Counted from the stretch's first letter, positions 3,177 through 63,451 are shown. The stretch: DNA of 64,000 bases from Candidatus Latescibacterota bacterium (GCA_965217585.1 OZ244561.1:5920001-5984000), one strand, 5' to 3'. The notes: generated by a model from the sequence alone, not told the origin. A program made the numbers and translations.

Positions 3177-3476
3177 ATGCCCGCAGTGCAAGACATTCTA
3201 GTATTTTTTCAGACCACGCCCGCGCTCGACGCCCAAGTCGTCGCTTGGGCACGCTACGAAGCCTCCAAGGGCACGGGCCTAGGCGACTTGGTCGAGGAGA
3301 GCGATCCTCCCTACCAGAATGCCATGGCGGCCATGCGCGACGGCTGGCAAGTCATCCAGATGTCGGAACTCAAACATCGCTTGCCCCAAGAGGGCTATGA
3401 ACTGGGGCCGCTGCCCTACCAGATCGTGCTGGCGAAATTCAACGAGCTGCAAAAAGAGGAAGGAGCCACATCGTGA
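3177..3476 (+). CDS. Small hypothetical protein coupled to PhyH gene
   Basis: 99-aa ORF; stop overlaps GTG start of the next gene (GTGA). Confidence 0.7.
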   Translation: MPAVQDILVFFQTTPALDAQVVAWARYEASKGTGLGDLVEESDPPYQNAMAAMRDGWQVIQMSELKHRLPQEGYELGPLPYQIVLAKFNELQKEEGATS

Positions 3477-4282
3477 AAGAGCATCTTTTGAACTCGAAGC
3501 AGATGGCGCAATTCGTTGCCTCGGGGTATTTGAAGTTCGAAGAAATGGTGCCCCAAGATCTGTGCCGAGCCTGCCTTGAGGAAATGCACCACAACCAGGG
3601 CTATCTCGCCGTGGGTACCCCCTTTGAGGAGACTTGGCCCAAAGGCACGGCTTTGGGCGATGCGTTCCGCCTGCCGCAGGTGCAGGGACTCATCCACTCC
3701 TTGGTCGGCCCCGATCCCCTGTACGACCACCACGGCGTGCACTTGACCAAGGCCGAACAAACCAAGGGGCCCAATATGCACCAAGACTCGGTCATCGACT
3801 TCCGCGACCATTACTTCGATATCCAGCTATCGCTGTTCCCCGCGGATACAACAGACGAGATGGGCGGTACTTTCTTGGTGCCGGGAACGCAATTCCGCAA
3901 TGTGCGCACCGGGGAGATCTCCATTTACCACCACATGCGCGGCAAGATCTGGGCGACCTGCCCGGCGGGGACGATGTACGTGTGGAACACCCGCGTCTGG
4001 CACGGGGCGCGCAGCAACTACACGGATCGGGATCGCTTCATGTACAAGTTGCGGCTCAACCCGACGCAGCCGCAGGTCTGCAACTTTAACACCGCGGATC
4101 TGGACGACCCTGAGATCGGTCGCATCCTGTCGACCAACCACGGCTGGGAGGGCAACGAGCATCGCTACGAACTGATGCAGCGCGTGCGCTTGTGGCGCTT
4201 TGTCTCCGACCAGCCAAACTACGATGTGGGCGAGCGCTTTATGCGGCGCATTGAGTACCAGCCCGGCGAGGCGGCAGGCTAG
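3473..4282 (+). CDS. Phytanoyl-CoA dioxygenase (PhyH) family Fe/2OG oxygenase
   Basis: MHQDS (HxD), GGTFLVPGT, distal VWHGA, conserved Arg. Confidence 0.88.
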   Translation: MKEHLLNSKQMAQFVASGYLKFEEMVPQDLCRACLEEMHHNQGYLAVGTPFEETWPKGTALGDAFRLPQVQGLIHSLVGPDPLYDHHGVHLTKAEQTKGPNMHQDSVIDFRDHYFDIQLSLFPADTTDEMGGTFLVPGTQFRNVRTGEISIYHHMRGKIWATCPAGTMYVWNTRVWHGARSNYTDRDRFMYKLRLNPTQPQVCNFNTADLDDPEIGRILSTNHGWEGNEHRYELMQRVRLWRFVSDQPNYDVGERFMRRIEYQPGEAAG

Positions 4283-8988: not shown

Positions 8989-9804
8989 ATGGGATTATCA
9001 CAAATGCCGAAAAAACTACCCCTCGCCGGGGTCAAACAATCCGAAGAGCAGATTGCCCAGTGGATCGAGAGATTTCATCGCGAGGGGTATCTGTGCGTTA
9101 AAAACGTCCTGCCGCCGGACTGGTGTGCGCAATTGCGGGCCGACTTGGACCGGGCGCTGGCGGACAATCCGAATGGACTGAACAACTACAGCGAGCGCAC
9201 GAAGCTCGCGCATCGGCTATTCGAAACGAGCGCAGCGAACCTGCGCCTGTTCGATCTCGAGCCGATTGTGAGCTTCGCAGAGGAGCTGGTAGCGCCGAAT
9301 TGCCACGTGATTCACAACAACTCGTTTCAGACGTTTCCGGGCGGAGGGATCTCGACGTGGCATCAGGACGACGCCCCGCACTACGTCATCACAGATGGCA
9401 AGCCACCGGCGAATGTCCATCTGCCCGTGCTGTTTTTCACGGCCAACTACTATCTGACCGATGTGGATACGCCGGCGCACGGCGGGACGGAAGTGATTCC
9501 GGGGACGCACATGCTCGGTAGATCACCGGGCGAAATCGAGGGCTCCGAGTGGGAAGACAAAATCGTCCACAACAGCGCGCCGGCGGGGAGCGTCGTGATG
9601 TTCAACAATCAGGTGTGGCATCGCGGGGGGCCGAACCGCACTGACCGCACGCGGTACATCACTCAGGTGACGTATGCGCGCCGGATCGTCGGGCACAAGT
9701 ACTACCCGTTTATGAACTACCAAATGCCGCCGCATGTGTACGAAAATGCAAACCCCCGGTTGAAACGGCTGCTCGGCTTCCTCGATCACGGCGCGTACGG
9801 CTAG
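8989..9804 (+). CDS. PhyH family Fe/2OG oxygenase
   Basis: WHQDD, GGTEVIPGTH, VWHRGG, R; start may be ATG 9004. Confidence 0.88.
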   Translation: MGLSQMPKKLPLAGVKQSEEQIAQWIERFHREGYLCVKNVLPPDWCAQLRADLDRALADNPNGLNNYSERTKLAHRLFETSAANLRLFDLEPIVSFAEELVAPNCHVIHNNSFQTFPGGGISTWHQDDAPHYVITDGKPPANVHLPVLFFTANYYLTDVDTPAHGGTEVIPGTHMLGRSPGEIEGSEWEDKIVHNSAPAGSVVMFNNQVWHRGGPNRTDRTRYITQVTYARRIVGHKYYPFMNYQMPPHVYENANPRLKRLLGFLDHGAYG

Positions 9805-25748: not shown

Positions 25749-27617
25749 CTATTCTTCTTTCTTGGCGTTTTTTTCGGCGCGGTAGCGCAGGCTGTGTTGC
25801 AGCTCCCTCTTGCGTATGCGCAGGGCCTTGGGCGTCACTTCCAAGAGCTCGTCGTTGTCCAGGTATTCAATCGCCTCGTCAAGCGTCAGGATGCGCGCCG
25901 GTGAGAGTGAATCCAATAGGGCCTTGGGCGCAGCGCGGTGGCCGGTCAGGTGTTTGGTGCGGCAGACATTGACGACCAAGTCTTCGTTGCGGATAGTCTC
26001 GCCGACGACTTGACCGGCATAGACTTCCTCACCGGGACCAATGAAAAAAGTGCCGCGCTGCTGTAGATGCTCCAGCGCATAAACACTGGCGGTGCCGCGC
26101 TCGTGTGAGATAAGTGAGCCGTGTTCTTGCACGTCGATCTCCCCAGCCACCGGCTCGTAATCGTGGAAGAGCGTATTGAAGGTGCCCGTACCGCGCGTGG
26201 TAGTTAAGTAGGGCTGGCGAAACCCGAGCATCCCGCGGGTGGGAACGAAGAATTCGGCATAGACTACGCCGTCATCGCCGTGGCGGATGTCCTGTAGCCG
26301 CCCGCGCCTTTTGCCGAGTATTTCGCTAACGGGCCCCAAATACTCGGCAAGCACCTCGATAAAGACCCGCTCAACGGGTTCGAGGAGGCCGCGCGTACTC
26401 GGGCGCAAGATGACCTCGGGATTGCCCACCGCTAGCTCGTAGCCCTCGCGCCGCATTGTTTCGATCAGGATGGCTAGGTGCAACTCGCCGCGGCCAGACA
26501 CGACAAACTCGCCCGAACGCTCCAAGTCCTCCACGCGCAGCGCGACATTGCTCTCCAACTCGTCGAAGAGCCGTGTGCGGAGTTCGCGGCTGGTCACGAA
26601 GCGGCCCTCGCGCCCGGCGAAGGGGCTGTCGTTGACCTTGAAGAGCATGCGTACTGTCGGCTCTTCGACTTTGATCGGCGGCAGCGCCACGGGTCGGGCC
26701 GGGCAGGTCAGCGTATCGCCGATACCGACGGCGGGTACGCCGGAGACGGCGACGATATTGCCGGCGTGGACTTGTTCGACCGACTCGCGCTTGAGGTTGC
26801 GGAAGACGAAAACCTGTCCGACCGTGGCCGGCTGCATCTCGCCTTCATCGTTGATGTGGACAATTGCCTGACCGGCGGCCAGCGAACCGCTGCTCAAACG
26901 GCCGACGGCGATCTTGCCGACATAGGAGCTGTACTCCAAGGTCGTAACCAATAACTGCGGCGGACCGTCTATGGCGATCTGCGGCGGCGGGAGGTGGCCG
27001 ACGATCGCATCGAATAAGGGGACTAGATTTTCAGCTAGCCGATCGGGTGCAAGTCCGGCGCGACCTTCTAAGGCCCGGGTGTAAATCACGGGGAAGTCGG
27101 CCTGTTCGTCGTTGGCCCCGAGGTCGATAAAAAGATCAAAAGTGGCGTCGATCACTGCGTCGGGGCGGGCGGCGGGCCGGTCTATTTTGTTGACGACGAC
27201 GATGGCCTTGTGCCCGCGCTCCAGCGCTTGCTTGAGGACGAAGCGCGTCTGCGGCATCGGCCCCTCGACGGCGTCAATGAGCAACACCACGCCATCGACC
27301 ATATTCATAATGCGCTCGACTTCACCGCCGAAGTCAGTGTGGCCGGGGGTATCGACGATATTGATGGTCGTGCCGTCGTACATAATGCCCGTGTTCTTGG
27401 CCAAGATCGTGATGCCGCGCTCGCGCTCGAGATCGTTGGAGTCGAGGACGCGTTCGGCGACTTGTTGGTGCGCCTCGAAGACATTGCTCTGTTTGAGCAT
27501 ACCGTCGACTAGGGTGGTTTTACCATGGTCAACGTGGGCGATAATGGCCACATTGCGGATATCGGTGCGGGGTGCCGTTTGCACTGCGTCTTGCGTTGCG
27601 GGTTCGGGTTGGGTCAT
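25749..27617 (-). CDS. typA: Translational GTPase TypA/BipA
   Basis: [38 protein letters not shown]. Confidence 0.97.
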
Positions 27618-27640
27618 GGATCCTCTAGGATTGGGCCAAT

Positions 27641-27686
27641 AAAAGGAAAGGGGGCCGCGCTGTGGCTTTCTGCGCGGCCCCCTTTT
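27641..27686 (-). terminator. Strong terminator hairpin in the typA 5' leader
   Basis: 14-bp perfect arms AAAGGGGGCCGCGC / GCGCGGCCCCCTTT, 11-nt loop, T-rich tail on the minus strand ending about 25 nt before the typA ATG. Confidence 0.75.
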
Positions 27687-28024
27687 ATGGTCGCCGCACG
27701 AGCTAACTCTACGCGGCGTATTCGCTGAGCGTTTCGTCTAATCGATTTGGAAGCTGTCTAATTTTTTATAAGACAATGCCTTAGAGTAAATTAGGGTGCT
27801 TTTAAGTATTGGGCAAATAAATGGTCATCGCCGCCGCGCATCCGCCGCCGCAAACGCGTCCTCTCCCGGACCGCCGTAGCAGTATTTTGCTGACCAACGA
27901 ATGCTACCTCGATGCTCAGTCTCGCTGGTCTGCTGCAGTTTTTGCCGCATTGTAGCCGGCGGTGTATCTTCCTATTTATCTAGGTTAGAACGTGCAACTT
28001 TGCAACCTCCGCAGACAAAGTATA

Positions 28025-30718
28025 ATGCCCGGTAAGCACCGCCGCAGAGATCGAAAGCGGAAACGGCTAAAACAGAGGCGCGTACCTCCCAAGCATCTGT
28101 TGGAGCAGGCCCGGCAGAGTTTAACTGAGGGAGATGGACGCCAAGCCCTCGACCTGCTCAGGCAGGCCCAACACGGCGACTCCGCTCTGGAGGGACTGCC
28201 GCTGTTGCTCTTTTGTGCCTGCATTCAACGCGCCCGTCAGTTGGCGAAAAAGGGCTTGGCCAAAGAAGCCGTTGCCATGCGCACCTTGGCCGCTCAACAC
28301 CGGGCCTCCATTGCCTTCCAGACGCTGGCCGAAGAAGATTTGGTGCAGTACATCCGCCACTCAGATGGGGCCGAAGCCTTGGAGGATTACGCGGACTATT
28401 TGAAGGCCCAACCGTCGCCCATTCTCCAAGTCGAACGGGTGCTGGCGGACCTTCTCGTGATCCAAAGGTGCTGGAAGGGCCTCGAAGTCCTCGCGGCGGA
28501 CCACCCCCTCCGGCGAGACGCCGAGCAGGTCGAACAGAGTCTCGAAGCCATGGACGCCGGGGACTGGGAGCGGGCCGTCGGCCTGCTACAAGGAATCGGC
28601 CGGCGCTCCCCGTTTGCCGCTTGGCGTCTGTTTTGCAAGGCCATGGTGTGTTTCGGCACCGGCGATGACCAGGGGTTGCGCCGAATTCTCGAGCTGTTGC
28701 CGGCCGACTTTGCCATGACCCACACGGTCGCCGAATGGAGACGCCTCTGTACAGGCGAAGGAGTGGACGGGCTGGCCCAAGTGCAGCAGGCCCTAGGGAC
28801 GGCCGGCGCGGCCAGCATGGCCTTGGCCGACCAACTGCGCCGGGCGATCCACAAAGGGCGTCTGCGCGATATCGAACGACTTATCCCCCGCCTAGCCGTT
28901 GCCCTGTACCCCGAAGAGCCCCTCCAAGCTCAGATGGCCCTGCTGCAGATCGTTGGTCTAGCCGTTCCTCGGGACAAAGTATCCATCCAAGCCATCCCCG
29001 GACTGGCGCAACGTCTCCTGCCGATTGAGCGGGCGGCTAGTGCCACGGCCCAGATTGGCTTGTTAATCCAGCAGCTGTCTCCCGACAGGTGGGATCCCGG
29101 GCCGGCGGCTGTGTACCTCGACCTGCTATCGGTGGAGTTTCCCCAGGCGCCAGATCGGGCCGTGGCCCGAGGCCGCGTGCTGGAGGCCATGGCCCGGACC
29201 GGCCACAAGGTCGGTCTTCAGCCCCACTTCCTGCCGGCCGAAATGGTCGAGTCGCTCGCCGCCCTGCTGGACGAGCGGCTCGACGATCCCGGGATGGCAT
29301 TGGCCCAATTGATGACGGCTAGCCTCGCGGCCGATCCCGACAACCGCGAAGGCTATCGCTTTCTTCTCGATCTGCTGCGGGGCCACCCCGAGTACCAAGC
29401 CAAGTTCGAAAAGACCTTGCGCGATATGGCGGCCCGCTTCCCAGACGATCCAGACCCCCACCTAGAACTGGCGGCCCTCCACTATGCCAAAAATGCGTAC
29501 CGCCGAGCCGAAAAGTCGCTGGCTGAGGGCCGCCAGTGCGCTCCCCACGACGAGCGTCTCTTGGATATGCAGGCCATCGGCTTCCTCAAATCCGCCGATC
29601 AGAGCCGCAAGCGCGGACGGTTTGAGCTAGCGGCCCAAGATCTCCAGCGCGCTGAGGACTTAGAACGCCCGCGGCTGGCGTTCGTCTTGCGGGTGAAGCG
29701 GCTCCTGCTGGCGGTGGTATCCGCCGGCCGGGATGCCGCCGAGGTCGTCGCTCCCCACTTAGAGTGCCTGCCGCCCAGTGCCCGACTCAGAACTTTGGCC
29801 CTGCTGCTCCACGATTTGGCGGAAAACAGCCATATCAAGAACGTCAAGCCCGAGATGGGAAATGCCCTGAAGGCGTTGCTCAATCGCCAGGCAACGGTCT
29901 TGGAGCAACTCGGCCCCGACGCAGTGCTCGAGCTCATCGCCCCTTTGCCCGCTGACTTCCGCATCCTCTACGACCGCCTCCAGATCGCTCCGGTCCTCGC
30001 CGACTGGTGGACCGCACTCATGGAGCGCCTCGAAGGGGATCACCTGCTCGCCTTCTTCGATATCCTGCTGGCCGGCGACCAGCACGCTCCGGTGCGCGCC
30101 GAAATAAACCGCCGCCTGCGGGGCCGCAAAAAGGCCCAACGCGACCCGCTGCTCCTGTTCTACTTGGCGGTGATCCGCTACCAAGAGGGCCAAGACTACG
30201 ATTCGAGGCGCTTTGCCGAAGTCCTCGACGCGGCAGATGCCGCCGACCAGACGCGGCTGCGGGCGGCGGCGGTGCGGCTGGCCAGCTACGCGCACGGCCC
30301 CTTGCGGCAGGCCCTACAGCAGTTCCGCTTTGACGTGCTGGATTGGCCCGTGCCCCTGTTCGGGGGTGGGCTGCCGCTGCCCGCAGACCTCCTCGGCGGG
30401 GAAGGCGGGTCGTTAGAGGAGGCTTTAGAGATGCTGCTCGGCGACGAGGCCGAGCCCTTGGCGATACCGGAGCTGAGCGACGGCGATATAGCGGACGAAC
30501 TGAGCGAGCTGGAGGACTTCATCGACGAAAACAGCCTGCGCGGTGCCCCGCTGGCCGCATTGAAGGAATTTGCCGGCTCCCTCAAGTCTAGCCAGCAGAC
30601 GCGGCGAGATCTGGAACGGATCGGCCGCGAGTGCGAAGCGGCGGACCTGAGCGACGACCTCTCGCCCGAACTGTACTTTCTGCTCTTCGCCCGCAGAAAA
30701 AAGAAAAAACATCGTTGA
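28025..30718 (+). CDS. Large TPR-like alpha-helical protein, first gene of the chaperone operon
   Basis: About 897 aa, Ala/Leu-rich helical repeats (e.g. ARFPDDPDPHLELAALHYAKNAYRRAEKSL); basic N- and C-termini; start could be GTG 27992. Confidence 0.8.
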   Translation: MPGKHRRRDRKRKRLKQRRVPPKHLLEQARQSLTEGDGRQALDLLRQAQHGDSALEGLPLLLFCACIQRARQLAKKGLAKEAVAMRTLAAQHRASIAFQTLAEEDLVQYIRHSDGAEALEDYADYLKAQPSPILQVERVLADLLVIQRCWKGLEVLAADHPLRRDAEQVEQSLEAMDAGDWERAVGLLQGIGRRSPFAAWRLFCKAMVCFGTGDDQGLRRILELLPADFAMTHTVAEWRRLCTGEGVDGLAQVQQALGTAGAASMALADQLRRAIHKGRLRDIERLIPRLAVALYPEEPLQAQMALLQIVGLAVPRDKVSIQAIPGLAQRLLPIERAASATAQIGLLIQQLSPDRWDPGPAAVYLDLLSVEFPQAPDRAVARGRVLEAMARTGHKVGLQPHFLPAEMVESLAALLDERLDDPGMALAQLMTASLAADPDNREGYRFLLDLLRGHPEYQAKFEKTLRDMAARFPDDPDPHLELAALHYAKNAYRRAEKSLAEGRQCAPHDERLLDMQAIGFLKSADQSRKRGRFELAAQDLQRAEDLERPRLAFVLRVKRLLLAVVSAGRDAAEVVAPHLECLPPSARLRTLALLLHDLAENSHIKNVKPEMGNALKALLNRQATVLEQLGPDAVLELIAPLPADFRILYDRLQIAPVLADWWTALMERLEGDHLLAFFDILLAGDQHAPVRAEINRRLRGRKKAQRDPLLLFYLAVIRYQEGQDYDSRRFAEVLDAADAADQTRLRAAAVRLASYAHGPLRQALQQFRFDVLDWPVPLFGGGLPLPADLLGGEGGSLEEALEMLLGDEAEPLAIPELSDGDIADELSELEDFIDENSLRGAPLAALKEFAGSLKSSQQTRRDLERIGRECEAADLSDDLSPELYFLLFARRKKKKHR

Positions 30719-30731
30719 GAGGAGCAGCGAT

Positions 30732-31079
30732 ATGATAGCTCATTATTGGGTCTTGGGACTTTCCCCGGCCGCGTCCCAAGAAGAGATTCGCCAGCGCTAT
30801 TTGCAGCTAATCCGCACGCATCCGCCTAGCCAAAACCCCGAGCGTTTCCAGCAAATTACGGCCGCATACGAGGCCTTGAAGGATGCCCGCTCTCGAGCGG
30901 AAACGGCCATTTTCGGGATGGCCCAGTACGGCGATTTTGAATTGGCACTCGCGGCATTGGTGCAGGCGCGTCCGGCTGAGCGCAAGGTGCCGGGCTTAAA
31001 AACTCTCCTCGCCGCAGAAGGCAAGACGACTGGAAATCCGCAGATGGCGCAGATGAAAGGCGAAGGCAAGGATGGGTAG
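30732..31079 (+). CDS. Small J-domain protein (HPP in place of HPD)
   Basis: HYWVLGLSPAASQEEIRQRYLQLIRTHPP...ERFQQITAAYEAL. Confidence 0.88.
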   Translation: MIAHYWVLGLSPAASQEEIRQRYLQLIRTHPPSQNPERFQQITAAYEALKDARSRAETAIFGMAQYGDFELALAALVQARPAERKVPGLKTLLAAEGKTTGNPQMAQMKGEGKDG

Positions 31080-31740
31080 AAAGGGCGACGACTGGAAGCA
31101 ACAGGCCCTAGCGGATTTTGGACAGTGGCTGGACGAGTGGGCCGAGGACCCTTTAGAGGCCGATGCCGAGGAAACCGCCGAGTGCGACCTGCGCGACCTG
31201 TTTGCCGAAATTGCCGCCCTGCGGCAGGAGACCCGTCTGCAGAACCGGGAGCAGGCCAAGGCCGGCCGGGAGTTGGAAAAGGCGGCTACCCTATACGGGA
31301 CGGTCGCAGACTGGGCGCAGCGCCGGGAAGAGGATCTGGCGTCCTTTGAGAAGCGCATCGCTAGGGCGGCCGAGGATCGCTGTCTGCGGCCCTTTTTAGC
31401 TGTGCGCGACGCTTTGGTGCGAGGCCGAGCCGCGGCGGTCCAGCTACACAGACCGCCGCGGCTGTTCCGGCGTCCAGCGCCGGGGATCGCCGGGGTGGTG
31501 CAAGGCTATGAATTGGCCCTCAGACGCTTTGACCGGATGCTGGCCCAGTTTGGCGTCCAGCTTTTGCAGACCGTAGGGCATCCCTTTGATGCCCGCACGA
31601 TGCGGGCAGTAGAGACGCGCCGGGTCGCGCAGCGCGAAGACAACGTGGTCGTCGAGGAATTCCTCAGTGGTTTTACGCGCGAGGGCGAAGTACTGCGCTT
31701 GGCCGAGGTGGCAGTGAACCGTCTCGACATACAGGAGTGA
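31072..31740 (+). CDS. GrpE-like nucleotide exchange factor
   Basis: Coiled coil followed by VGHPFDARTMRAV...VVEEFLSGF...VLRLAEVAV. Confidence 0.88.
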   Translation: MGRKGDDWKQQALADFGQWLDEWAEDPLEADAEETAECDLRDLFAEIAALRQETRLQNREQAKAGRELEKAATLYGTVADWAQRREEDLASFEKRIARAAEDRCLRPFLAVRDALVRGRAAAVQLHRPPRLFRRPAPGIAGVVQGYELALRRFDRMLAQFGVQLLQTVGHPFDARTMRAVETRRVAQREDNVVVEEFLSGFTREGEVLRLAEVAVNRLDIQE

Positions 31741-31745
31741 TTTCC

Positions 31746-33488
31746 ATGGAAGCAATTATCGGTATAGACTTGGGCACGACCAACTCGGAAGTGGCGATCA
31801 TTTCCAAGGGGACGCCAGCAATCGTCTGGGAGGACAATGAAGCGCTTTTACCTTCGTGCGTGGGGCTCAATGAAATGGGGCAGGTCATCGTCGGGCACCA
31901 GGCCCGCAACCAGTACGCGGTCGCCCCCGAGCGCACGGTGCTTTCTATCAAGCGCCTGATGGGGTCTGAGACCCGGGTGCCGATGGGGGCGGAGGAATAC
32001 ACGCCTCAAGAGATTTCGGCCTTTATCCTCAAGGCGCTCAAAGAGCGGGCGAGCCGCGCCCTAGAGCGGCCTGTGTCCAAGGCGGTCATTACCGTACCGG
32101 CCTATTTCACCGATGCCCAGCGGCAGGCCACCCGGGAAGCCGGCGATCTCGCCGGCCTAGAGGTCGTGCGGATCATCAACGAGCCCACGGCCGCGGCCCT
32201 CAGTTACGAGAGCAGCAGCGAGGGACACCGCAAAATCCTCGTGTACGATCTGGGTGGGGGCACCTTCGACGTCTCGGTGGTGGGCATGGAAGCAGGTGTG
32301 GTCGAGGTCTTGGCTTCCACCGGAGACAACCACTTAGGCGGCGACGATTTCGATCAGGTCCTTCTCGAGCGCCTCAACGCCCACCTCGAAACTGAGTTGG
32401 GCCTCGCAGACGTCCGCCAGAACCGCCTTTTGCAGGCGCGGCTGCGACGGGCGGCCGAAGGGGCCAAAATCGAACTCTCTCGCCAGCCTTACACCCGCGT
32501 GGAGGAGGACCACATCGCCTCGGTCAACGGCGAGGCCCTGCATCTTTCCTGCGAACTGAGCCGCGCCGACTTTGAGCGCGACCTAGAAGAGCCGCTCGCC
32601 CGCACCATGCAGGCCGTCACTGGGGCACTCAACGACGCCGATGTGCGCCCCAGCCAACTCGACCGCATTCTGCTGGTGGGCGGTTCGACCCGCATTCCGC
32701 GCATTGCCCAACTCCTTTCGGAGAGACTGGGGCAGGAGCCCCACGGCGGCGTGGACCCCGATTTGTGCGTGGCGCTGGGGGCCGCGGTGCAGGCGGGGAT
32801 CGAAATGGGACAGACCGTGCGAGCCGTGCTGGTCGATATCACGCCCTATACTTTTGGGACCAGCGCCGTAGGGGAACTCTATGGCATGCCTTACGCCCAC
32901 CAATTCATTCCCCTCATCCGGCGCAACGCCAAACTCCCGGCCACCCGGACCGAGGTGTTCTTCACTATGCACGAAGAACAAGAGACCGTGGAGATCAAAG
33001 TCTATCAGGGGGAAGATACAGACGCCTTGAAGAACGTGGAGATCGGCACCTTCCTCTTTGGCGACTTAAATCAGCAGAAAGGCGCTCAGGAGCAGGGCAT
33101 CCTCTTTACCTACAGCTTGGATCTCGACGGTCTCTTGAAAGTTCACGCAGTCGAACGGGCGACCGGCCGGGAAATCCGCGGCGTAGTCAATAATGCTCTG
33201 GGGCATTCCACCGAAGAAGAACTCAGCGCATCTAGGAAGCGGATCGAGGCGCTTTGGGGCGCGGAGGAAGCAGCATCCGTGGAGGAGGCCGGCCACGCCG
33301 AGAAATCCGCGGCGGTCAAGGATACCCTAGAGAGGGCCGCAGAAGCGCTCGATACGGCCCCAGCCGAAGATCGAGAAGAGATCGTCAATCTGGTGGAGGA
33401 TCTGCGCGACGCCCTGCAGGAAGGGTGTGCCGAGAAGGTCGCTGCTTGCAAGCGGGAACTCGACGAAATTCTCTTCTATTTGGAGTAG
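31746..33488 (+). CDS. Specialised Hsp70 (DnaK-like) chaperone
   Basis: IGIDLGTTNS, TVPAYF, INEPTAAA, YDLGGGTFDVS, LVGGSTRIP; divergent linker/SBD and short lid. Confidence 0.95.
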   Translation: MEAIIGIDLGTTNSEVAIISKGTPAIVWEDNEALLPSCVGLNEMGQVIVGHQARNQYAVAPERTVLSIKRLMGSETRVPMGAEEYTPQEISAFILKALKERASRALERPVSKAVITVPAYFTDAQRQATREAGDLAGLEVVRIINEPTAAALSYESSSEGHRKILVYDLGGGTFDVSVVGMEAGVVEVLASTGDNHLGGDDFDQVLLERLNAHLETELGLADVRQNRLLQARLRRAAEGAKIELSRQPYTRVEEDHIASVNGEALHLSCELSRADFERDLEEPLARTMQAVTGALNDADVRPSQLDRILLVGGSTRIPRIAQLLSERLGQEPHGGVDPDLCVALGAAVQAGIEMGQTVRAVLVDITPYTFGTSAVGELYGMPYAHQFIPLIRRNAKLPATRTEVFFTMHEEQETVEIKVYQGEDTDALKNVEIGTFLFGDLNQQKGAQEQGILFTYSLDLDGLLKVHAVERATGREIRGVVNNALGHSTEEELSASRKRIEALWGAEEAASVEEAGHAEKSAAVKDTLERAAEALDTAPAEDREEIVNLVEDLRDALQEGCAEKVAACKRELDEILFYLE

Positions 33489-33493
33489 CCCGC

Positions 33494-33799
33494 GTGGAAC
33501 GCTGTCCGACGTGTAAGGCCCAGCACCGAGGGGGCCTTTTCTGCCATCGCTGCAAGACCGATTTGCGCCAAGTGCTGGCGGTCGAACGGGCTGCGGACCG
33601 CCAGCGGCGGCACGCACGTGCGGCGCTTGAACGCGGTTGTAGGTCCCAAGCCCGCGCCTGCGCCCGCCGCGCCTGCGCCCTCCACCGATCCCCCGATTCC
33701 CTAAGGGTGCGGGCCCTAGTTGCTCTGGGGGACGGCGATTTCCCGCTGGCGCTGAGGCTTTGGCGGGAAATTCGGCAAGGGCGTGAGGCCGAGATATAG
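33494..33799 (+). CDS. Double CxxC zinc-ribbon plus TPR-like small protein
   Basis: GTG start 5 nt after the Hsp70 stop; RCPTCKA...FCHRCKTDL then a helical Ala/Arg-rich segment. Confidence 0.75.
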   Translation: MERCPTCKAQHRGGLFCHRCKTDLRQVLAVERAADRQRRHARAALERGCRSQARACARRACALHRSPDSLRVRALVALGDGDFPLALRLWREIRQGREAEI

Positions 33800-33840
33800 C
33801 TCTTGGCGCTGGCGACCGGGCCGAAAGTGCCGACCTGATA
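33788..33840 (-). repeat. Decayed partial copy of serine hydrolase gene segment 34767-34840
   Basis: GCCGAGATATAGCTCTTGGC identical at 33788 and 34767; after a 21-bp gap a further 33 bp align (YQVGTFGPVAS-AKSYISA vs YLVASFGPVASVEVTFSCAKSYISA). Confidence 0.8.
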
Positions 33841-33949
33841 AAGGACGGTCTCCTCCTTCAGTCGATCAGTACTTTTTCGCGGCGTTGGGCGCTGTCGTAT
33901 AGGGCGTTGAGCACCTGCATGAGGCGATAGGCGTCTGGGCGCGGGGGGA

Positions 33950-35071
33950 TCAACCAGACGGAACTTCACTGGCGAGAATGCGGTCAATCACGGCCTTGGC
34001 ATCGCCGCACCAGCGCAGGACGATGACCAGCTCGCGCTCCGGCTCGACGAAGACGATGTTGCCGCCGGCCCCGCGCGCCGCAAAACTTTCGAGACAGGCC
34101 AAATCGGACATGTCGTGTTGGTGGTTGAGCCACCACAGGAAGCCGTACTCGGGCTTGATGGAGCAGGGGGTGAGGGAGTGGTCAATCCATTGTTCGGAGA
34201 GGATTTGTCGGCCGTTCCAGCGCCCTCGCCGCTGGAAGAGCAGGCCAAAGCGGGCGTGGCCGTAGGTGGCGATCCACAGGCCGCCGCCCCAGTGCGTGCC
34301 GCCGGAGACGGATTGGACCCTTTGCCCGCCTTCCTCGACCCAAGAGGTTTCGTACCCGTGCCATTCCCAAGTGGGAGAGGCCCCAATGGGGTCCATGATG
34401 GTTTCTTTGAGCACTGGAGGTAAGGGGCCACGGAAAAGGCGCAACAGGCTGAGGGCGGTGCGGTTGACGCGGACGTCGTTGTATTCCCAAAAGGTGCCGG
34501 GCGGTTCCAGAGACCGGTAATCGTCGGCGCTGGAGGCCGCGCCGCCCACCGTGGCTTCGGCGGCACCTTGGCCCAGTTGGCGGCCGCGGTCAATCCAGTC
34601 GGGGAGGCCGAAGAGTTCGCCTTCCCACTCGCTGGTTTGTTGCAGCAAATGCCGCCAAGTGATGGAGGCGTTGTGGGCGCTGTCAAAGCCGCTGTCGGCG
34701 ACCGTGCGGCCGACGGGTTCGTCCAGATCGCGTATTAGCCCTTGGTCGAAGGCGACCCCGGCCAGCGCCGAGATATAGCTCTTGGCACAACTGAACGTGA
34801 CTTCGACGCTAGCGACTGGGCCGAAGGAGGCGACCAGATATCCTTGCCGCACGATCAGGCCGGCTGTGGCTCTCCGTTTTTTGAGTGGGCCTAACGGACG
34901 GTCGTTGGGGTGGCGGTCGCCCTTGGGCAGCATGGTGGCCAAATTGGTGGAGGCTTGGATCTCTTGGGTCTGGGCGAAGGCCAATGCCGCGGCTAGTTTG
35001 TCGGCGTCGAAGCCGGCTTGGGCGGGGCTGCGGCGCAGCCAATCGTGGGGGGTGGGGCAGTAGGTAGTCAT
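33950..35071 (-). CDS. Serine hydrolase, beta-lactamase class C family
   Basis: SCAK (SxxK), HLLQQTS, WEYND (YxN-like), YGFLWW, AARGAGG. Confidence 0.9.
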   Translation of the reverse strand: MTTYCPTPHDWLRRSPAQAGFDADKLAAALAFAQTQEIQASTNLATMLPKGDRHPNDRPLGPLKKRRATAGLIVRQGYLVASFGPVASVEVTFSCAKSYISALAGVAFDQGLIRDLDEPVGRTVADSGFDSAHNASITWRHLLQQTSEWEGELFGLPDWIDRGRQLGQGAAEATVGGAASSADDYRSLEPPGTFWEYNDVRVNRTALSLLRLFRGPLPPVLKETIMDPIGASPTWEWHGYETSWVEEGGQRVQSVSGGTHWGGGLWIATYGHARFGLLFQRRGRWNGRQILSEQWIDHSLTPCSIKPEYGFLWWLNHQHDMSDLACLESFAARGAGGNIVFVEPERELVIVLRWCGDAKAVIDRILASEVPSG

Positions 35072-41386: not shown

Positions 41387-41722
41387 ATGATCTATAAAGT
41401 CGAGAAGGACCAGAGGAATTTAGCCGCTTTTGACGTGCCCGGTGCCACGGTGCAGGTTTCCGATCCCATTATTGGCGTCGGTGACAAACTGTCGGCCGGT
41501 TTTACCGAGTATCTAGAGGCCAGTCGGTTGACGTGGACCTTTGATTACGACGAGGTCTTTTTTATGTTGGAGGGGCGCTTGGAGATCCAAGTCGCGGGTC
41601 AGGAGCCGGTGCAATACGAGGCAGGTGACTTGGGTTATATTGAGAAGGGTACGCAGACGATCATCACCGTGCCGGAACGAGCCTATTTGCTGCATGTCAC
41701 CCACCCAGCGTGGCGGAGGTGA
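41387..41722 (+). CDS. Cupin (EutQ-like) protein
   Basis: LSAGF, WTFDYDEVFFMLEG, AGDLGYIEKG. Confidence 0.85.
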   Translation: MIYKVEKDQRNLAAFDVPGATVQVSDPIIGVGDKLSAGFTEYLEASRLTWTFDYDEVFFMLEGRLEIQVAGQEPVQYEAGDLGYIEKGTQTIITVPERAYLLHVTHPAWRR

Positions 41723-41757
41723 AGGTGACTTTCGAGCCTAGGAGGGCAAGAGAGCGG

Positions 41758-42552
41758 ATGGAAACGACACTGCGCCAAGCATACGACGAGCAGGGCTTTT
41801 GCATTGCCCGCAAGGCCATTGACGCGGGGCTGGCGGCCGAGACGGTGGAGCACGTGCACTGGTTGGTCAAAAAGCATCCGGGCACGCGGCCCGAGCGCCT
41901 GCACCACGAACTGATGGTGCACGATCCCTTTATGCACCGCCTAGTCACCGACGACCGGCTGGTCGATATTGCGGCGCAGTTCCTCGGGCCTAATGTGGCC
42001 ATGTTCGCGGCGCACTATATCGCCAAAAAACCCAGCACCGGCCAAGCCGTGCAGTGGCATCAGGACGGCTCGTACTGGCCCTTGGAGCCGATGGAGGTCA
42101 CCACGTTGTGGGTGGCCGGCACGGACTCGACGGTGGCCAATGGCTGTATGCGGGTTTTGCCGGGAACGCACACCAAGCAATTGCTCAAGCGCAGCGAGAT
42201 GGTCGCTCTCGATACGGACAAATACGTCCTCGGTGTCGGCATCCACCCCGACCATATCGACGATGCCGACGCCGTCGATCTGGAGCTGGAGGCGGGGGAT
42301 ATTTCCATCCACCACCCCAGCATCATCCACGGCTCCAACGCCAATACTTCGGACCAATGGCGGGTTGGGCTTACCCTGCGCTACATTCCGACCAGCACCA
42401 AGGTCACCGTGGATCGCAGCCCGTGCATTATGTGTCGGGGCGAGGTGGTGCCCGCAGTGGGGAACAAGTACGCGCCGCGGCCGCAGTATGTCGAGGGGGA
42501 GCACATGCCCTTTGCTGGGTGCGAGCACTGGAGTTTGCAGACGGCTTCTTAA
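41758..42552 (+). CDS. PhyH family Fe/2OG oxygenase
   Basis: WHQDG, NGCMRVLPGTH, IIHGS, WRVG. Confidence 0.9.
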   Translation: METTLRQAYDEQGFCIARKAIDAGLAAETVEHVHWLVKKHPGTRPERLHHELMVHDPFMHRLVTDDRLVDIAAQFLGPNVAMFAAHYIAKKPSTGQAVQWHQDGSYWPLEPMEVTTLWVAGTDSTVANGCMRVLPGTHTKQLLKRSEMVALDTDKYVLGVGIHPDHIDDADAVDLELEAGDISIHHPSIIHGSNANTSDQWRVGLTLRYIPTSTKVTVDRSPCIMCRGEVVPAVGNKYAPRPQYVEGEHMPFAGCEHWSLQTAS

Positions 42553-42619: not shown

Positions 42620-43483
42620 TCACTTGCCAAGCGCGACGTTGCCGTCTGAGTCCACCTGTAAATGCAGCCCCTTGGCTATACTGGAACAGGGGCCGTGCAT
42701 GACGGCGCGTTGCTCGGGTGTCATACCCTCTACGATAGCCTCGTCCCAATAGACTTCCGGCGCTGCTAACTCAATGGAGACGCCAGAGCGGGTGGCGGTG
42801 CGGCTCGCGTACTTGTAGAGTGCGGCGCGGCGCGGCGCATCGCCGGTCCAGGGCAGGGTGCCGTGGGTCTGGGCTCCGTCCATAAAGAAAATGACATCGC
42901 CGGCTTTGAGCGCGGGTTGGTGGACCACGTCCAGCGGCTCGTCGCAGGAGCGCACGCCGGCGGGCATGGGGAATTTGGCTTTGTGGCTGCCCGGTACACA
43001 GGCAAAACCGCCATCGCCGGCCTTGCAGTCGGCCAACTGCCAAGTCACGGTGACGCCAGCGCAGTGGAACTGGCCGTTTTGGTGATGGTAGGCCACGTAG
43101 GGTCTATGGGGTTCACCCGCTCCGTGCAGGATGAGGCCCTCGGTCCCCTTGGGACTGTAGGATACCCAGGGGCCATGGTCGTGGCGGAACCCCTTGCCGC
43201 ACATCGCGTTGAGGCGAGAGACAACTTGGGGATGCACCAGTAGGCGGCGAAAGGGTTCGCAGTGGGGATGGGGCAATTCGAGCAGGTTGGGGAGGGTCTG
43301 TTGGCCGGTGCCTTGGAGCGCGTTCGACTCTCCCCTAGCGCCGCCATTGTCGGGGCTTTGCTGCATTCGCTCCATGCAGTGATCGATAGCGGCGTTGCAT
43401 TCGCTTAATTCCTCAGCGGTGAGGACATTGCGGACGACCAGATAGCCGGTGAGATCCCAAAAGTAGCGTTCGCGCGCATCCAT
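42620..43483 (-). CDS. PhyH-fold Fe/2OG enzyme with HGA in place of HxD
   Basis: GYLVVRNVL, LILHGAG, GGFACVPGSHK, THGTLPW, RRA. Confidence 0.88.
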   Translation of the reverse strand: MDARERYFWDLTGYLVVRNVLTAEELSECNAAIDHCMERMQQSPDNGGARGESNALQGTGQQTLPNLLELPHPHCEPFRRLLVHPQVVSRLNAMCGKGFRHDHGPWVSYSPKGTEGLILHGAGEPHRPYVAYHHQNGQFHCAGVTVTWQLADCKAGDGGFACVPGSHKAKFPMPAGVRSCDEPLDVVHQPALKAGDVIFFMDGAQTHGTLPWTGDAPRRAALYKYASRTATRSGVSIELAAPEVYWDEAIVEGMTPEQRAVMHGPCSSIAKGLHLQVDSDGNVALGK

Positions 43484-43484
43484 T

Positions 43485-44354
43485 TTAGCCCTCCGCAATC
43501 CAGGTTTTTTGGCCGTCGGATTCCAGTAGGGGCAGACTCTTATGGTGGACGCCCGGCCCGTAGAGGACGGCTTGTTGTTGGGGCGTGAGTTCGTCGGTCC
43601 AGGTGCCGTAGCGCGCCTGTGGGGTGAAGTGTTTGCCCGTAGCTCGGGCCGCGCCCCGGGAAGCGTATTTGTAGAGTACGGAGCGCCGTGGATTTTTGCC
43701 CTTCCAGGGCAGGGTGCCGTGGGTGGCGGTCTCGGCGAAAAAGAGGACGTCGCCGGCGCGCAGGGCGGGTTGGACGACCAAGTCCCCGTACTCTGCGAGC
43801 GAGCGGATCTCGGGCGGGGTTGGCTCGCAGGTTTTGTGGCTCCCGGGGATTACGGCAAAGCCGCCGTCTCCGGGGTTGCAGTCGGTTAGTTGCCAGGCCA
43901 CGGTGATGCCCCGGCAGTAGATTTTGCCGTTTTGCTGGTGATACCAAGTGGCGGGGCTAAAAGGCTCGCCCGAGCCGTGCAGGTAATGCCCTTCAGTTCC
44001 CTCGGTGGCGCTGATGAGCAGGGGGCCGTGATCGAGGCGAAAGCCCGGACCGCTGAATTCGTTGAGGCGCGAGACGACGGTGGGATGGACCAGCAGGCGG
44101 CGAAAGGGTTCGCGGTAGGGGGGTGGCCAACCGAGCATGCCGGTGAGTTGCTGGCGGCTGGTAGTGCCTTGCAGCGCACGCGACTCGCGGGCGAGGGTGC
44201 CGGGGTAGGCGGCGATCTGGTCGGCGAAGTGGTCGATGGCGGCGTTGCATTCGCCTACTTCCTCGGCGGTGAGGGCGTTGCGAACCACGAGGTAGCCGCG
44301 CAGGTCGAAGTAGTATTTCTCTTCTTCTGAGACCGTATAGAGGTATTTGTCCAC
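43485..44354 (-). CDS. PhyH-fold Fe/2OG enzyme with HGS in place of HxD (tandem paralogue)
   Basis: GYLVVRNAL, YLHGSG, GGFAVIPGSHK, THGTLPW, RRS. Confidence 0.88.
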   Translation of the reverse strand: MDKYLYTVSEEEKYYFDLRGYLVVRNALTAEEVGECNAAIDHFADQIAAYPGTLARESRALQGTTSRQQLTGMLGWPPPYREPFRRLLVHPTVVSRLNEFSGPGFRLDHGPLLISATEGTEGHYLHGSGEPFSPATWYHQQNGKIYCRGITVAWQLTDCNPGDGGFAVIPGSHKTCEPTPPEIRSLAEYGDLVVQPALRAGDVLFFAETATHGTLPWKGKNPRRSVLYKYASRGAARATGKHFTPQARYGTWTDELTPQQQAVLYGPGVHHKSLPLLESDGQKTWIAEG

Positions 44355-45467: not shown

Positions 45468-45548
45468 TACCGATTTGACTTTTTAGTGTCCTAATTACCC
45501 TCTTCTCTTGGGGGAGACTTATTAGGACAGACGATTAGCAAAACGGTA
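45468..45548. mobile_element. 81-bp MITE-like insertion with a TAA/TTA target-site duplication
   Basis: TAA at 45465-67 and 45549-51; imperfect ~28-bp TIRs TACCGATTTG..TGTCCTAAT / TACCGTTTTG..TGTCCTAAT; AT-rich; removal restores GGLL-VVPRG. Confidence 0.88.
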
Positions 45549-48644: not shown

Positions 48645-48652
48645 TTCCCGCC

Positions 48653-53118: not shown

Positions 53119-53128
53119 GGCATTATCA

Positions 53129-53812: not shown

Positions 53813-53844
53813 GAATGAATTCCTTTTTTTGCTTTGCCCGGCTT

Positions 53845-61754: not shown

Positions 61755-62549
61755 TCAAACCCTCCCAGGAAAAGACCGTCCTCGCACCTGCTTAAAGGGA
61801 GGCATCTTGGGCGCGTCGGTGACCGCTTCGTCGCGCCAGGAAGCCGCGCGCATGTAGTGCACGGCATAGCCCCTGCGCCGCGTACCGGTCCGATTGGCGT
61901 TGCTCTGGTGCAGCGTCAGGCTGTGGTGGAAGCTGATGCTGCCGGGGCGGAGGGGAGCGGGTCGGATGGGCCAGCCGCCGCTTTTTAGGTCGGCGACAAA
62001 AGGGGCCAAGCGCTCGCCCCGCAACATGCCCCAGCGATGGGTGCCCGGGGCGAAGTTGAGGCAGCCGTTGTCGAGGGTGGCCGCGTCAATGGCGGTCCAG
62101 GCGGAGACCAAGTCCATGGGGAAAATATCGCGCCAAGAGGCCGAGTCTTGGTGCCAGCCCTGTGCCGTACCCGTGCGCGGAGCTTTCATAAAAAGCTGGT
62201 CGCCATACAGCTTAATGTCGTCGGTGCCGAGCAGGTCGGCGGCGATATCGGCGATTTTGGGGTGGGTGACGTGGGCCCACATTACGTCGTCGTACACTGC
62301 TATGCTGTACAATTTGCGCACGGCCAGCACTTGGTCGGTGACGGCTTTTTCGCCGCGGCGGAAGACGGGTTCGAGCTGGATGCTGGTGTCGGGGATGTGG
62401 TCTAGCTCGCCGGCGGCAATGCGGTCAGTATGGGCCGCTAAAGCGGCTACCTCGTCGGGGGTCAGCACATCTTCGACGGTCAGACAGCCGTCGAGATAGA
62501 AGCGCTCTACTTGGTCAGGGGTGAGGTGGCGCAGGTTTTGTTGGGTCAC
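61755..62549 (-). CDS. PhyH family Fe/2OG oxygenase
   Basis: WHQDS, NGCLNFAPGTH, TLHQS, RRG; GTG start overlapping the upstream stop. Confidence 0.9.
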   Translation of the reverse strand: MTQQNLRHLTPDQVERFYLDGCLTVEDVLTPDEVAALAAHTDRIAAGELDHIPDTSIQLEPVFRRGEKAVTDQVLAVRKLYSIAVYDDVMWAHVTHPKIADIAADLLGTDDIKLYGDQLFMKAPRTGTAQGWHQDSASWRDIFPMDLVSAWTAIDAATLDNGCLNFAPGTHRWGMLRGERLAPFVADLKSGGWPIRPAPLRPGSISFHHSLTLHQSNANRTGTRRRGYAVHYMRAASWRDEAVTDAPKMPPFKQVRGRSFPGRV

Positions 62550-63451
62550 GGGACGGTCTCCTCCTTCAGTATAGACCGATAATTCTCCGCCCAAGCTTTG
62601 AGCGGAATATCCTCGTCTTGGGGCCGCCAGTAGCGCGACACCGGCAGCACCAAGGGGTCGTCGCCCGCATAGTCCGTGCTGCCGGTGCCCAACTCGCCCA
62701 AAAGCTGACGCCGCACCGGGTCGCATCCTTGCAAGACTTCTGGGGCTTGGTGCTCGTAATCCGAGGGGCGGATCCAGCGGTGCTGATAGCCGTAGTACAG
62801 GCATTTGCGCGGTTGGTCGGACAGATTGGGGGTCAAGCAGTGGTACAAGGCCGTGCGCCATACCAGCGCGGTGCCGGGGGCGACGTTGACTTCGACAATG
62901 CGCGCGGGATCGACGCGGCGCGCATTGTCGTCAATCCACGGCGATTGGCGATGGCTGCCGCGCACAACGCAAATGGCACCGCTCAACGGTTGGGTCAGGT
63001 CAGTTAAATAATAGCCGACCTTCATCTCCATAAAGGGCAGTACCCCATCGACAGCGGGCCAGCCGTAGTTGGGGCCGTCGGCGTGCCAGGGGAAAAAACT
63101 GTCCGGGGCACCCAACTCATGCTCGCCGTCGGCGGGATCTTGCGGCGGGCGCACATCGAGGTGCGACGTGCGGAGCTGGATATTGTAGCCCATCAGGTCC
63201 ACAACCAGAGGTAAAACGGGCGGATAGTCTACCAACTCCTTAAAGAGGGAATCAGCCGCAATATTGCGCATCTGAAAGGCTTGGCGGGGACCGATATTGC
63301 GCTCCCGTCGGTAGCGGTCGTACACCTCGTCGAGCCGTTGCAATAGAACAGCGATGCGGTCGGGTGGTAGGGCGTCTTCGACGAGAAAGAAGCCGTCTTC
63401 GTCGAATTGCCGCTGTTGTTCGGGGGTGATCTTTAAGGTGGTTTTGCTCAT
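62546..63451 (-). CDS. PhyH family Fe/2OG oxygenase
   Basis: WHADG, GAICVVRGSH, LYHC, RK. Confidence 0.9.
   Translation of the reverse strand: MSKTTLKITPEQQRQFDEDGFFLVEDALPPDRIAVLLQRLDEVYDRYRRERNIGPRQAFQMRNIAADSLFKELVDYPPVLPLVVDLMGYNIQLRTSHLDVRPPQDPADGEHELGAPDSFFPWHADGPNYGWPAVDGVLPFMEMKVGYYLTDLTQPLSGAICVVRGSHRQSPWIDDNARRVDPARIVEVNVAPGTALVWRTALYHCLTPNLSDQPRKCLYYGYQHRWIRPSDYEHQAPEVLQGCDPVRRQLLGELGTGSTDYAGDDPLVLPVSRYWRPQDEDIPLKAWAENYRSILKEETVP

Follow-up and report, generated by a model that had tools for sequence, protein, structure and literature searches.

A conserved five-gene Hsp70 cassette of the HscC-related branch with an HPD-less J-like protein and a TPR-type solenoid

Which task might be served by an Hsp70 that is encoded together with its own GrpE, a J-like protein lacking the aspartate of the HPD motif and two further proteins that are foreign to the housekeeping dnaK operon? 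The question is raised by a locus of a Candidatus Latescibacterota bacterium, situated in a stretch of 64,000 nucleotides (GCA_965217585.1 OZ244561.1:5920001-5984000) that we refer to as the window and from whose first letter all positions are counted. Five open reading frames (ORFs), all on the plus strand and arranged head to tail at 28025–33799, have confirmed reading frames and encode a large tetratricopeptide repeat (TPR)-type solenoid protein, here called BIG, a J-like protein, a GrpE, an Hsp70 and a small zinc ribbon protein, here called ZnR. A preliminary description had pointed to the linker AVLVDITPYTFG in the Hsp70, to HPP in the J-like protein and to CxxC-CxxC in ZnR, all of which are present, and had regarded the five genes as a self-contained unit. 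In our reading the cassette probably encodes an Hsp70 machine that is private, belongs to the HscC-related branch and has spread by horizontal transfer.

Conservation and movement of the cassette

A genome scan with an alignment of BIG identified 77 loci, all from metagenome-assembled or single-amplified genome records of uncultured organisms, which by their titles represent at least seven phyla (Latescibacterota, Vicinamibacterales/Acidobacteriota, Binatia, Spirochaetia, Alpha- and Gammaproteobacteria, Dehalococcoidia and one 'Syntrophobacterales'); the Latescibacterota loci show 77–92% identity. When the loci were searched by tblastn with the five proteins of the window, all five genes were found in the same order and on the same strand in 66 of the 77. 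Eight further loci end at a contig edge and are consistent with this order as far as their sequence goes, and the three exceptions carry BIG alone (L018), a BIG fragment (L070) or remnants (L077). Since order and strand are the same in 66 of the 77 loci, the arrangement exceeds chance; the self-contained unit first proposed is thus borne out, and its gene order recurs beyond the window in at least seven phyla. In the window, the first and last junctions are gaps of 13 and 5 bp, whereas the second and third are overlaps of 8 and 4 bp; the medians among the relatives are +12, −8, −1 and +5 bp. Identity to the window across phyla is highest for the Hsp70 (about 70–75%), lies at 60–70% for the J-like protein and ZnR, and falls to about 60% in GrpE and about 50% in BIG. 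The ratio of nonsynonymous to synonymous substitution rates (dN/dS), determined for 15 close pairs, stays under 1 in every gene except for noisy values of the short J gene (BIG, 0.24–0.54; Hsp70, 0.16–0.50; GrpE, 0.18–0.57; ZnR, 0.10–0.70), and all five cassette genes are under purifying selection in these pairs. Homology to close Latescibacterota loci begins at about 27969–27972 and stops about 35 bp past the last stop codon. No flanking gene family is common across lineages, the largest being present in 7 of 56 loci and the window, and the unit therefore consists of exactly these five genes.

Several copies document that the cassette changes its genomic site. The Vicinamibacterales assembly CBDHGC01 contains five intact copies with 94–99.8% DNA identity over 5.95–8.35 kb, in which the shared stretch includes 90 to 650 bp ahead of BIG, for most pairs about 350 bp, and in most pairs ends about 70 bp past ZnR, with unrelated flanks; two decayed copies are found in the same assembly, and another genome (CAXXVU02) has four loci. 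In four relatives of the window with about 91% DNA identity (L001, L002, L003 and L005) the cassette lies between the counterparts of window positions 42527 and about 42590, whereas in the window itself it sits between 27837 and 33962. Because of these different sites, the unit at 27969 to about 33835 and a neighboring 8.6-kb block have swapped their order. Inspection by eye, with no systematic repeat search, revealed no terminal repeats, terminal inverted repeats or target duplications at the unit ends, and no recombinase is encoded within the unit. In a tree of the five concatenated proteins from 50 loci and the window, the Acidobacteriota (17), the Spirochaetota (9) and the Latescibacterota (6 and the window) are each monophyletic, while the Pseudomonadota appear in three places and the Binatota are nested between a gammaproteobacterial copy and alphaproteobacterial copies. 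As far as sequence can tell, this pattern fits a few cross-phylum transfers followed by long vertical retention. Since the cassette occurs across phyla, in multiple copies and moves as a unit, it would seem to confer a selectable, transferable function in uncultured bacteria.

The features of the cassette are compiled in Table 1 together with a group of other ORFs of the window. The gene starts given there agree with those of the relatives to varying degrees: a longer GTG start of BIG at 27992 is not conserved among them; their J-like proteins have about 100–106 aa; their Hsp70s begin three residues later and hence have 580 aa, a form that ATG 31746 would yield in the window; and the open frame of ZnR spans 33254–33799, with the tabulated start being the one conserved in relatives. 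A promoter-like sequence TTTGCA-16-TATAAT (10 of 12 matches) is located at 27999–28026, its −10 box overlapping the ATG start codon of BIG, and may be due to chance because one such site was found versus 1.2 expected in shuffled sequences. The promoter and terminator scan showed no terminator-like site after ZnR on the plus strand, and an Rfam scan of 27000–34500 returned no match at E-values up to 0.1.

Table 1. Positions of the cassette, its genes and motifs, and of PhyH-type ORFs in the window
Feature	Positions	Strand	Basis or remark
Whole cassette as putative transferable unit, about 5.9 kb	27969..33835	+	homology limits versus close Latescibacterota loci
BIG, 897-aa all-helical TPR-type solenoid	28025..30718	+	ORF and AF2 model
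J-like protein, 115-aa ORF	30732..31079	+	J-domain helices I–III and conserved C-terminal extension (residues 52–100)
H-P-P replacing the HPD motif, J residues 30–32	30819..30827	+	
GrpE, divergent, 222 aa	31072..31740	+	
Hsp70, HscC-related branch, 583 aa	31737..33488	+	Pfam, NCBIfam, trees, alignment
Interdomain linker RAVLVDITPYTFG, Hsp70 residues 363–374	32823..32858	+	
Insertion of eight residues in loop L1,2 (substrate binding), Hsp70 residues 381–388 (approximate)	32877..32900	+	
Hsp70 C-terminus ILFYLE, nearly invariant	33468..33485	+	
ZnR, 101-aa zinc ribbon and four-helix mini-TPR	33494..33799	+	GTG start, CxxC-x9-CxxC
PhyH-type ORF	3473..4282		
PhyH-type ORF	8989..9804		
PhyH-type ORF	41710..42552		
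PhyH-type ORF	42620..43498		
PhyH-type ORF	43485..44354		
PhyH-type ORF	61755..62861		
PhyH-type ORF	62546..63451		

The Hsp70 and its divergent co-chaperones

The Hsp70 scores 470 bits with the Pfam family HSP70 (cut-off 20.6) and misses the NCBIfam cut-offs for DnaK (NF001413, 496.2 versus 648; TIGR02350, 484.7 versus 822.55); NCBI labels its close homologues as 'Hsp70 family protein'. In the alignment its identity amounts to 36% with E. coli DnaK, 34% with HscC and 37% with HscA, and its best match among solved structures is Geobacillus DnaK (385 bits). The linker reads DITPYTFG in 58 and DVTPYTFG in 3 of 61 family members, compared to DICPYSLG in E. coli HscC and DVTPLSLG in DnaK. The insertion in loop L1,2, apparent against Geobacillus DnaK and the E. 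coli paralogues, is conserved in the family, and the C-terminus ILFYLE is present in 50 of 61 members, the remainder carrying close variants, with similar ends in a wider sister clade. The equivalents of DnaK D8, K70, E171, D194 and T199, which we take to be the ATPase residues in this numbering, are kept as judged by eye in the alignment.

Several of these features are reminiscent of HscC, for which Mayer 2021 (PMC8215388), in the part devoted to its traits, lists a length of 550–580 aa, a deletion in lobe I (DnaK 76–101) and an insertion of 4–8 residues in L1,2. The cassette Hsp70 has 580–583 aa, the lobe-I deletion and an eight-residue L1,2 insertion, and further shares a D-I-x-P-Y linker and the absence of a long disordered tail, which that paper lists for HscC as well. 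It departs from HscC in keeping the 'GrpE' loop of subdomain IIB, where HscA and HscC show gaps of 7–8 residues, and in being encoded beside a grpE. As to the nine-residue deletion in lid helix B of HscC, the lid region of the cassette Hsp70 aligns poorly.

We then placed the protein in trees whose rows were taken from the 150 nearest representatives, a sample that leans toward the query and is not balanced. FastTree was run on 123 rows, including 108 of the 150 representatives (those of 540–660 aa), and IQ-TREE on 54 rows with LG+C20 and SH-aLRT supports. Both trees unite the cassette Hsp70s in one clade (support 97–99), which is nested in a larger clade (26 rows in IQ-TREE, support 99). This larger clade and the one containing E. 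coli HscC (10 rows, support 98–99) are sisters, with the cassette Hsp70s outside the latter, and both together (36 rows, support 100) are separate from the E. coli DnaK group, with the same topology in FastTree; the HscC branch is long (1.82), and rooting on HscA was assumed. An exhaustive search of the representatives yielded a graded series of relatives, many of which are 565–625 aa long, have a linker of this type and end in an ...LFYLE-like sequence. Judged by its sequence, the cassette Hsp70 is not a housekeeping DnaK and belongs to the HscC-related branch, and the distinction from DnaK that had been suggested beforehand is corroborated by both the NCBIfam cut-offs and the trees. The wide clade of 565–625-aa proteins (P0242–P0302), sister to the HscC clade, is itself characterized by a D[IV]TP[YHF][ST][FL]G linker and ...LFYLE-type C-termini.

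The GrpE can be recognized yet has diverged strongly, the best NCBIfam GrpE equivalog scoring 33 bits against a cut-off of 231 and Pfam GrpE 65.2 bits (cut-off 25.8). The aspartate of the HPD motif is treated as indispensable for J-domain action. The J-like protein is assigned by Pfam DnaJ (45.1 bits, cut-off 27.8) and its family profile matches solved J domains with a best E-value of 1.5e-8, yet none of the 73 family sequences has Asp at the third HPD position, where the triplets read HPP (36), HRP (29), YPP (2), HRV (2) and HRT, NPP, TPP or QRP (1 each). The loss of HPD noticed in the window is hence universal in the family. Residues 52–100 are conserved in the family alignment, the loop between helices II and III is short as in E. 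coli DjlC, and Pfam detects no DnaJ G/F region, zinc-finger or C-terminal client-binding domain.

It appears very unlikely to us that the cassette serves as an additional stress chaperone set of general purpose, i.e. a DnaK paralogue for a complex proteome to which the TPR and zinc proteins would be incidental. DnaK paralogues correlate with proteome complexity according to the relevant part of one study (PMC11019930), the contigs of the homologues are large (4–11 Mb), and the checked ATPase residues are kept and a GrpE is present; however, the absence of HPD from all 73 J-like proteins, the lack of a DnaJ client-binding domain, the altered substrate cleft, the strict linkage of the five genes across phyla and their movement as a unit all speak against this explanation. 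So do the upstream regions, since within 400 bp CIRCE-like sites were found in 0 of 66 and sigma-32-like sites in 1 of 66 by a scan with consensus patterns for these two regulators. While the housekeeping dnaK-dnaJ-grpE operon comprises the same three families, the cassette falls below the DnaK and GrpE equivalog cut-offs, is devoid of the G/F, zinc-finger and client-binding domains and of HPD, includes two extra genes and is mobile, multi-copy and common to several phyla.

The comparison to E. coli HscC with DjlB and DjlC reveals both likenesses and differences. Both Hsp70s are specialized non-housekeeping forms of about 556–583 aa in which the lobe-I deletion, the L1,2 insertion and the D-I-x-P-Y linker recur and a long tail is missing, their clades are sisters, and both have dedicated class-C J partners, with DjlC possessing the same short helix II–III loop and a non-canonical H-P-E. 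Since DjlC reads H-P-E, the departure from HPD has a conservative precedent in the HscC branch. A TPR-like (Sel1) gene is also present at the E. coli hscC locus, which holds the Sel1-repeat protein YbeT and YbeU. In contrast, the cassette Hsp70 is just 34% identical to HscC, lies outside the HscC clade proper and keeps the IIB loop and its own GrpE, both of which HscC lacks according to the section of the review that deals with it (PMC8215388). DjlB and DjlC are described there as tail-anchored, whereas the J-like protein is soluble, has about 100 aa and reads HPP or HRP. Homology between BIG and DjlC was sought and rejected (hhalign probability 0.04%), and a profile comparison of the J-like protein with DjlC gave a weak result (probability 36%). 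The J domain of E. coli K-12 DjlC (L080:2213–3664) is itself undetected by Pfam at E-values up to 1e-3.

Predicted architecture and mode of action

The BIG family comprises at least 227 homologues with a length of about 900 aa. Its AlphaFold2 (AF2) model (pLDDT 83.8) consists of about 50 helices with disordered stretches at 245–256 and 775–818, the latter being an acidic linker. Foldseek retrieved only generic TPR solenoids (Ctr9, Ski3, Naa15 and OGT among them; E-values 1e-5 to 1e-3) with a probability of 1.0 yet template modeling (TM) scores of just 0.12–0.23, the ESM Atlas likewise returned generic TPR clusters, and Pfam TPR_19 stays under its cut-off (21.9 versus 25 bits). The family profile has no match among PDB sequences, NCBIfam has none for BIG or ZnR, and neither Pfam nor Foldseek indicates an enzymatic domain in BIG. 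Both termini of BIG are rich in K/R (median K/R counts of 11 over the 30 N-terminal and 6 over the 12 C-terminal residues), the C-terminus following the pattern ...LLF(A/P)R and then K/R.

A complex of BIG (64-row alignment) with J residues 1–100 (45-row alignment) was predicted alongside three controls. The pair scored 0.77 and the best of the three controls 0.00; of 157 solved complexes 116 attain the former level, and of 215 mismatched pairs 2 do. The runs share at least 96% of contacts, with a partner pLDDT of at least 84. In the predicted interface, J residues 52–100 face BIG 145–440 and the J helices I–III are almost free. The prediction supports binding, with the C-terminal half of the J-like protein sitting inside BIG, and because of this predicted complex the two proteins look like a two-piece adaptor for the private Hsp70. 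The tie between the TPR protein and the chaperones that had been assumed beforehand thereby gains a predicted physical form.

The preliminary description had further taken BIG for the client or sensor of the machine. The coupling part of this idea fares well in the prediction, but BIG resembles more the targeting or scaffold half of a split J-protein. Chaperone titration as in sigma-32/DnaK and IRE1/BiP provides the model for a client or sensor: via the J-like protein, Hsp70 would clamp the hydrophobic, K/R-rich tails of BIG and keep it inactive, so that titration of the chaperone during proteotoxic stress would set the switch. The composition of both ends of BIG, the disordered linkers at 245–256 and 775–818 and the predicted anchoring of the J-like protein would suit such a switch, as would the dominance of positive charge in peptide binding by HscC that is stated in part of the review cited above (PMC8215388). 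On the other hand, BIG is without an output domain and the heat-shock marks upstream are as scarce as given above (CIRCE-like 0 of 66, sigma-32-like 1 of 66), which leads us to consider this explanation rather unlikely.

ZnR could contribute a further TPR element. Its cysteines C4, C7, C17 and C20 are invariant across 43 alignment rows, and Pfam DZR_2 (double zinc ribbon) remains under the cut-off (16.4 versus 27 bits). The AF2 model (pLDDT 92.5) shows a zinc ribbon and four helices, for which Foldseek lists small TPR modules (among them designed TPRs, Tah1, Hop TPR1 and CHIP-TPR; TM 0.55–0.66) at E-values of 0.1–0.4 that are not significant; the family profile matches PDB sequences only at E-values of 0.1 or worse. 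Eukaryotic TPR co-chaperones such as Hop, CHIP, Tah1, Sgt2 and Tom70 dock the C-terminal EEVD tails of Hsp70 and Hsp90. The four-helix module of ZnR superposes on three of these TPR modules (Tah1, Hop TPR1 and CHIP-TPR), and the cassette Hsp70 ends in a short, near-invariant motif, although this motif is hydrophobic and not EEVD. From fold likeness, ZnR is thus a candidate small TPR partner of the Hsp70 and a candidate receptor for ILFYLE. The ESM Atlas also contains unnamed ZnR-like clusters of about 100 aa in Acidobacteriota, Thermodesulfobacteriota and Planctomycetota, and because such clusters exist in these phyla, ZnR may travel with the wider LFYLE-type Hsp70 clade.

Taken as a private Hsp70 machine, the cassette might work as follows. 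BIG, a TPR solenoid of about 50 helices, would hold the J-like protein by the C-terminal helix and tail of the latter while leaving J helices I–III exposed, so that both would form a two-piece class-C J-domain adaptor. The adaptor would bring the cognate Hsp70 to the target bound by the solenoid, which may be the K/R-rich hydrophobic termini of BIG itself, an outside client or both, and possibly amounts to one dedicated client. The Hsp70, with its ATPase residues kept, a peptide cleft presumably remodeled by the eight-residue L1,2 insertion and no disordered tail, would be reset by the GrpE of the cassette. Since every J-like protein is without the HPD aspartate, we infer that this domain serves as a tether for the Hsp70, or triggers it by way of a changed contact, instead of firing it canonically, in which case hydrolysis would depend mainly on client binding. 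ZnR may then receive the invariant ILFYLE end. What makes the arrangement informative is that at least 73 J-like proteins have lost the HPD aspartate under purifying selection beside an Hsp70 with its ATPase residues and a GrpE, and because of this combination the system can be used to ask which functions a J domain has apart from triggering ATP hydrolysis.

A comparable parts list is known from the mitochondrial PAM import motor, which comprises mtHsp70, the scaffold Tim44, Pam18, the HPD-less J-like Pam16, the GrpE Mge1 and the zinc-finger escort Hep1. By analogy, the Hsp70, GrpE, HPD-less J-like protein, small CxxC...CxxC zinc protein and scaffold of the cassette would correspond to these components. 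The cassette differs in possessing neither a membrane component nor a second, HPD-bearing J protein, and the fold searches linked neither ZnR to Hep1 nor BIG to Tim44.

A number of observations weigh against the cassette being a machine built around a BIG–J adaptor. The binding of BIG to the J-like protein rests on model confidence and not on measurement. Conservation of BIG is no higher in the interface than elsewhere (at least 90% in 25 of 66 versus 219 of 690 columns, p = 0.34), and a search for BIG–J fusions among longer proteins found none, no one of 2513 candidates having scored, which according to the tool is weak evidence. A J-like domain without the HPD aspartate may just be inactive, and the ILFYLE end may be the last lid helix instead of a docking peptide. 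L018 has BIG without partners downstream, its sequence matching L019 at 99.9% identity precisely to where BIG stops (L018:12706) and being unrelated beyond. Moreover, several copies are broken or possibly frameshifted: besides L070 and L077, L071 (counted among the 66) is split by a repeated insertion of about 1.9 kb (L071:11643–13573), and split Hsp70 matches in L027, L028 and L074 are possible frameshifts or assembly errors.

The basic ends of BIG have yet another potential meaning, namely that BIG is a eukaryote-like repeat protein with NLS-like termini which symbionts deliver to a host, or which acts on that host, and which the Hsp70 set keeps export-competent. The mix of lineages among the loci would be typical of animal-associated marine consortia, and the exclusive origin of all 77 from uncultured genomes and an ankyrin-repeat gene that directly follows the cassette in the Latescibacterota locus L004 (15757–16791) would agree with a host-interaction factor. 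However, reading of the ORF translations, with no predictor run, disclosed no obvious signal peptide or hydrophobic membrane segment, and no flanking family, secretion genes included, is conserved across lineages, and we hold such a role to be very unlikely.

Genomic surroundings and a possible role in conflict

The mobility of the cassette raises the question whether it serves as an anti-phage or conflict system, in which BIG would recognize a foreign protein that the private Hsp70 holds, unfolds or dismantles, or in which the Hsp70 would keep BIG off until infection titrates the chaperone and releases it. The transfer across phyla (with Binatota nested among proteobacterial copies and Pseudomonadota in three places), the five intact and two decayed copies in one genome, the different site in close relatives and an Hsp70 dN/dS of 0.16–0.50, which is high for an Hsp70, are all compatible with such a role; yet the monophyly of the cassette within each phylum fits long vertical retention.

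The neighborhood is similarly two-sided. A defence island of the Hma type, with HmaA, HmaC and HmaB reaching 1493, 1133 and 1564 bits in PADLOC and with embedded candidate systems, occupies 45522–58042 on the minus strand; it starts 11.7 kb downstream of the cassette, and in the close relatives the cassette is about 2 kb from the insertion point of the island. Among the two nearest ORFs per side of 28 loci (109 ORFs), a mobile-element or defence-type Pfam domain occurs in 11 of the 28 loci, including Cas1–Cas4, AAA_15/21, Schlafen AlbA_2, Fic, PIN, integrase and transposases; seven further loci were left out because of their size. This count has no baseline, and a mobile unit would land in variable regions regardless of its function. 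In the window, the cassette is flanked on one side by an MFS transporter, DeaD and TypA and on the other by a beta-lactamase-like hydrolase, a UxuA-like enzyme and an FG-GAP protein. Furthermore, PADLOC-DB 2.0 contains no family matching any of the five proteins at E-values up to 0.01, Pfam and Foldseek show no nuclease, toxin or other effector domain in the cassette, and tblastn with BIG found no match in plasmid and phage collections. We regard an anti-phage or conflict system as conceivable though unlikely. The assignment to a stress, conflict/anti-phage or host-interaction system that had been offered earlier is conjectural, with no PADLOC match and with ordinary immediate neighbors in the window.

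Hsp70 homologues do occur in predicted conflict systems. The pertinent sections of Kaur 2020 (PMC7159879) describe neighborhoods of GAP1-N2 GTPases with HSP70, GrpE and DnaJ- or TPR-fused proteins, and those of the CoCoNuT study (PMC10542128) a type III component, CnuD, that combines an Hsp70-like domain with HEAT-like repeats and degenerate motifs. The cassette resembles them in pairing an Hsp70 homologue with helical repeats and, for the GAP1-N2 type, also with a GrpE and a J domain. In contrast, no GTPase, FNIII, McrBC or HEPN partner stands beside it; specifically, no GAP1-N2 GTPase or FNIII-repeat partner was detected among the 109 nearest ORFs of the 28 loci nor in the window, and its ATPase residues are kept where the motifs of CnuD are given as degenerate in that paper. 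ARMADA was considered as another Hsp70-based defence and rejected, ARMADA II being DISARM-like according to the part of the preprint concerned (10.1101/2025.09.22.677730). A more specific proposal, which we regard as doubtful, is a mobile immune or conflict module with the chaperone as its working part, where the HPD-less J-like protein and the TPR solenoid would capture a foreign protein of phage or host and the Hsp70 would hold or unfold it. If true, this would be defence by protein remodeling rather than by a nuclease or toxin, and J–Hsp70 coupling without the HPD aspartate; a function in defence or host interaction would in either case constitute a new mechanistic class.

Returning to the private Hsp70 machine, the full-text searches found no description of the five-gene cassette, in line with the earlier statement that no functional characterization was known. 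The bacterial derivatives of DnaK are called unexplored 'dark matter' in the part of a 2026 review that treats them (PMC13580251). For the HscC-related Hsp70s, which are largely unexplored, the cassette provides a concrete case that is portable and whose predicted architecture combines a TPR scaffold and its plug-in J subunit with a zinc mini-TPR protein and a private Hsp70 that has its own nucleotide exchange factor.

Further observations concern the remainder of the window. The Hma island carries PDC-M45A/B (DuOB, DUF488) together with a Schlafen AlbA_2 protein and is followed by a PD-T4-4_A-like AAA ATPase at 60161–61699, and the block from about 44.4 to 61.7 kb is absent in the relatives L002, L003 and L005. 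Seven of the 37 window ORFs scanned are of the PhyH type (phytanoyl-CoA dioxygenase), which represents a marked paralogue expansion.

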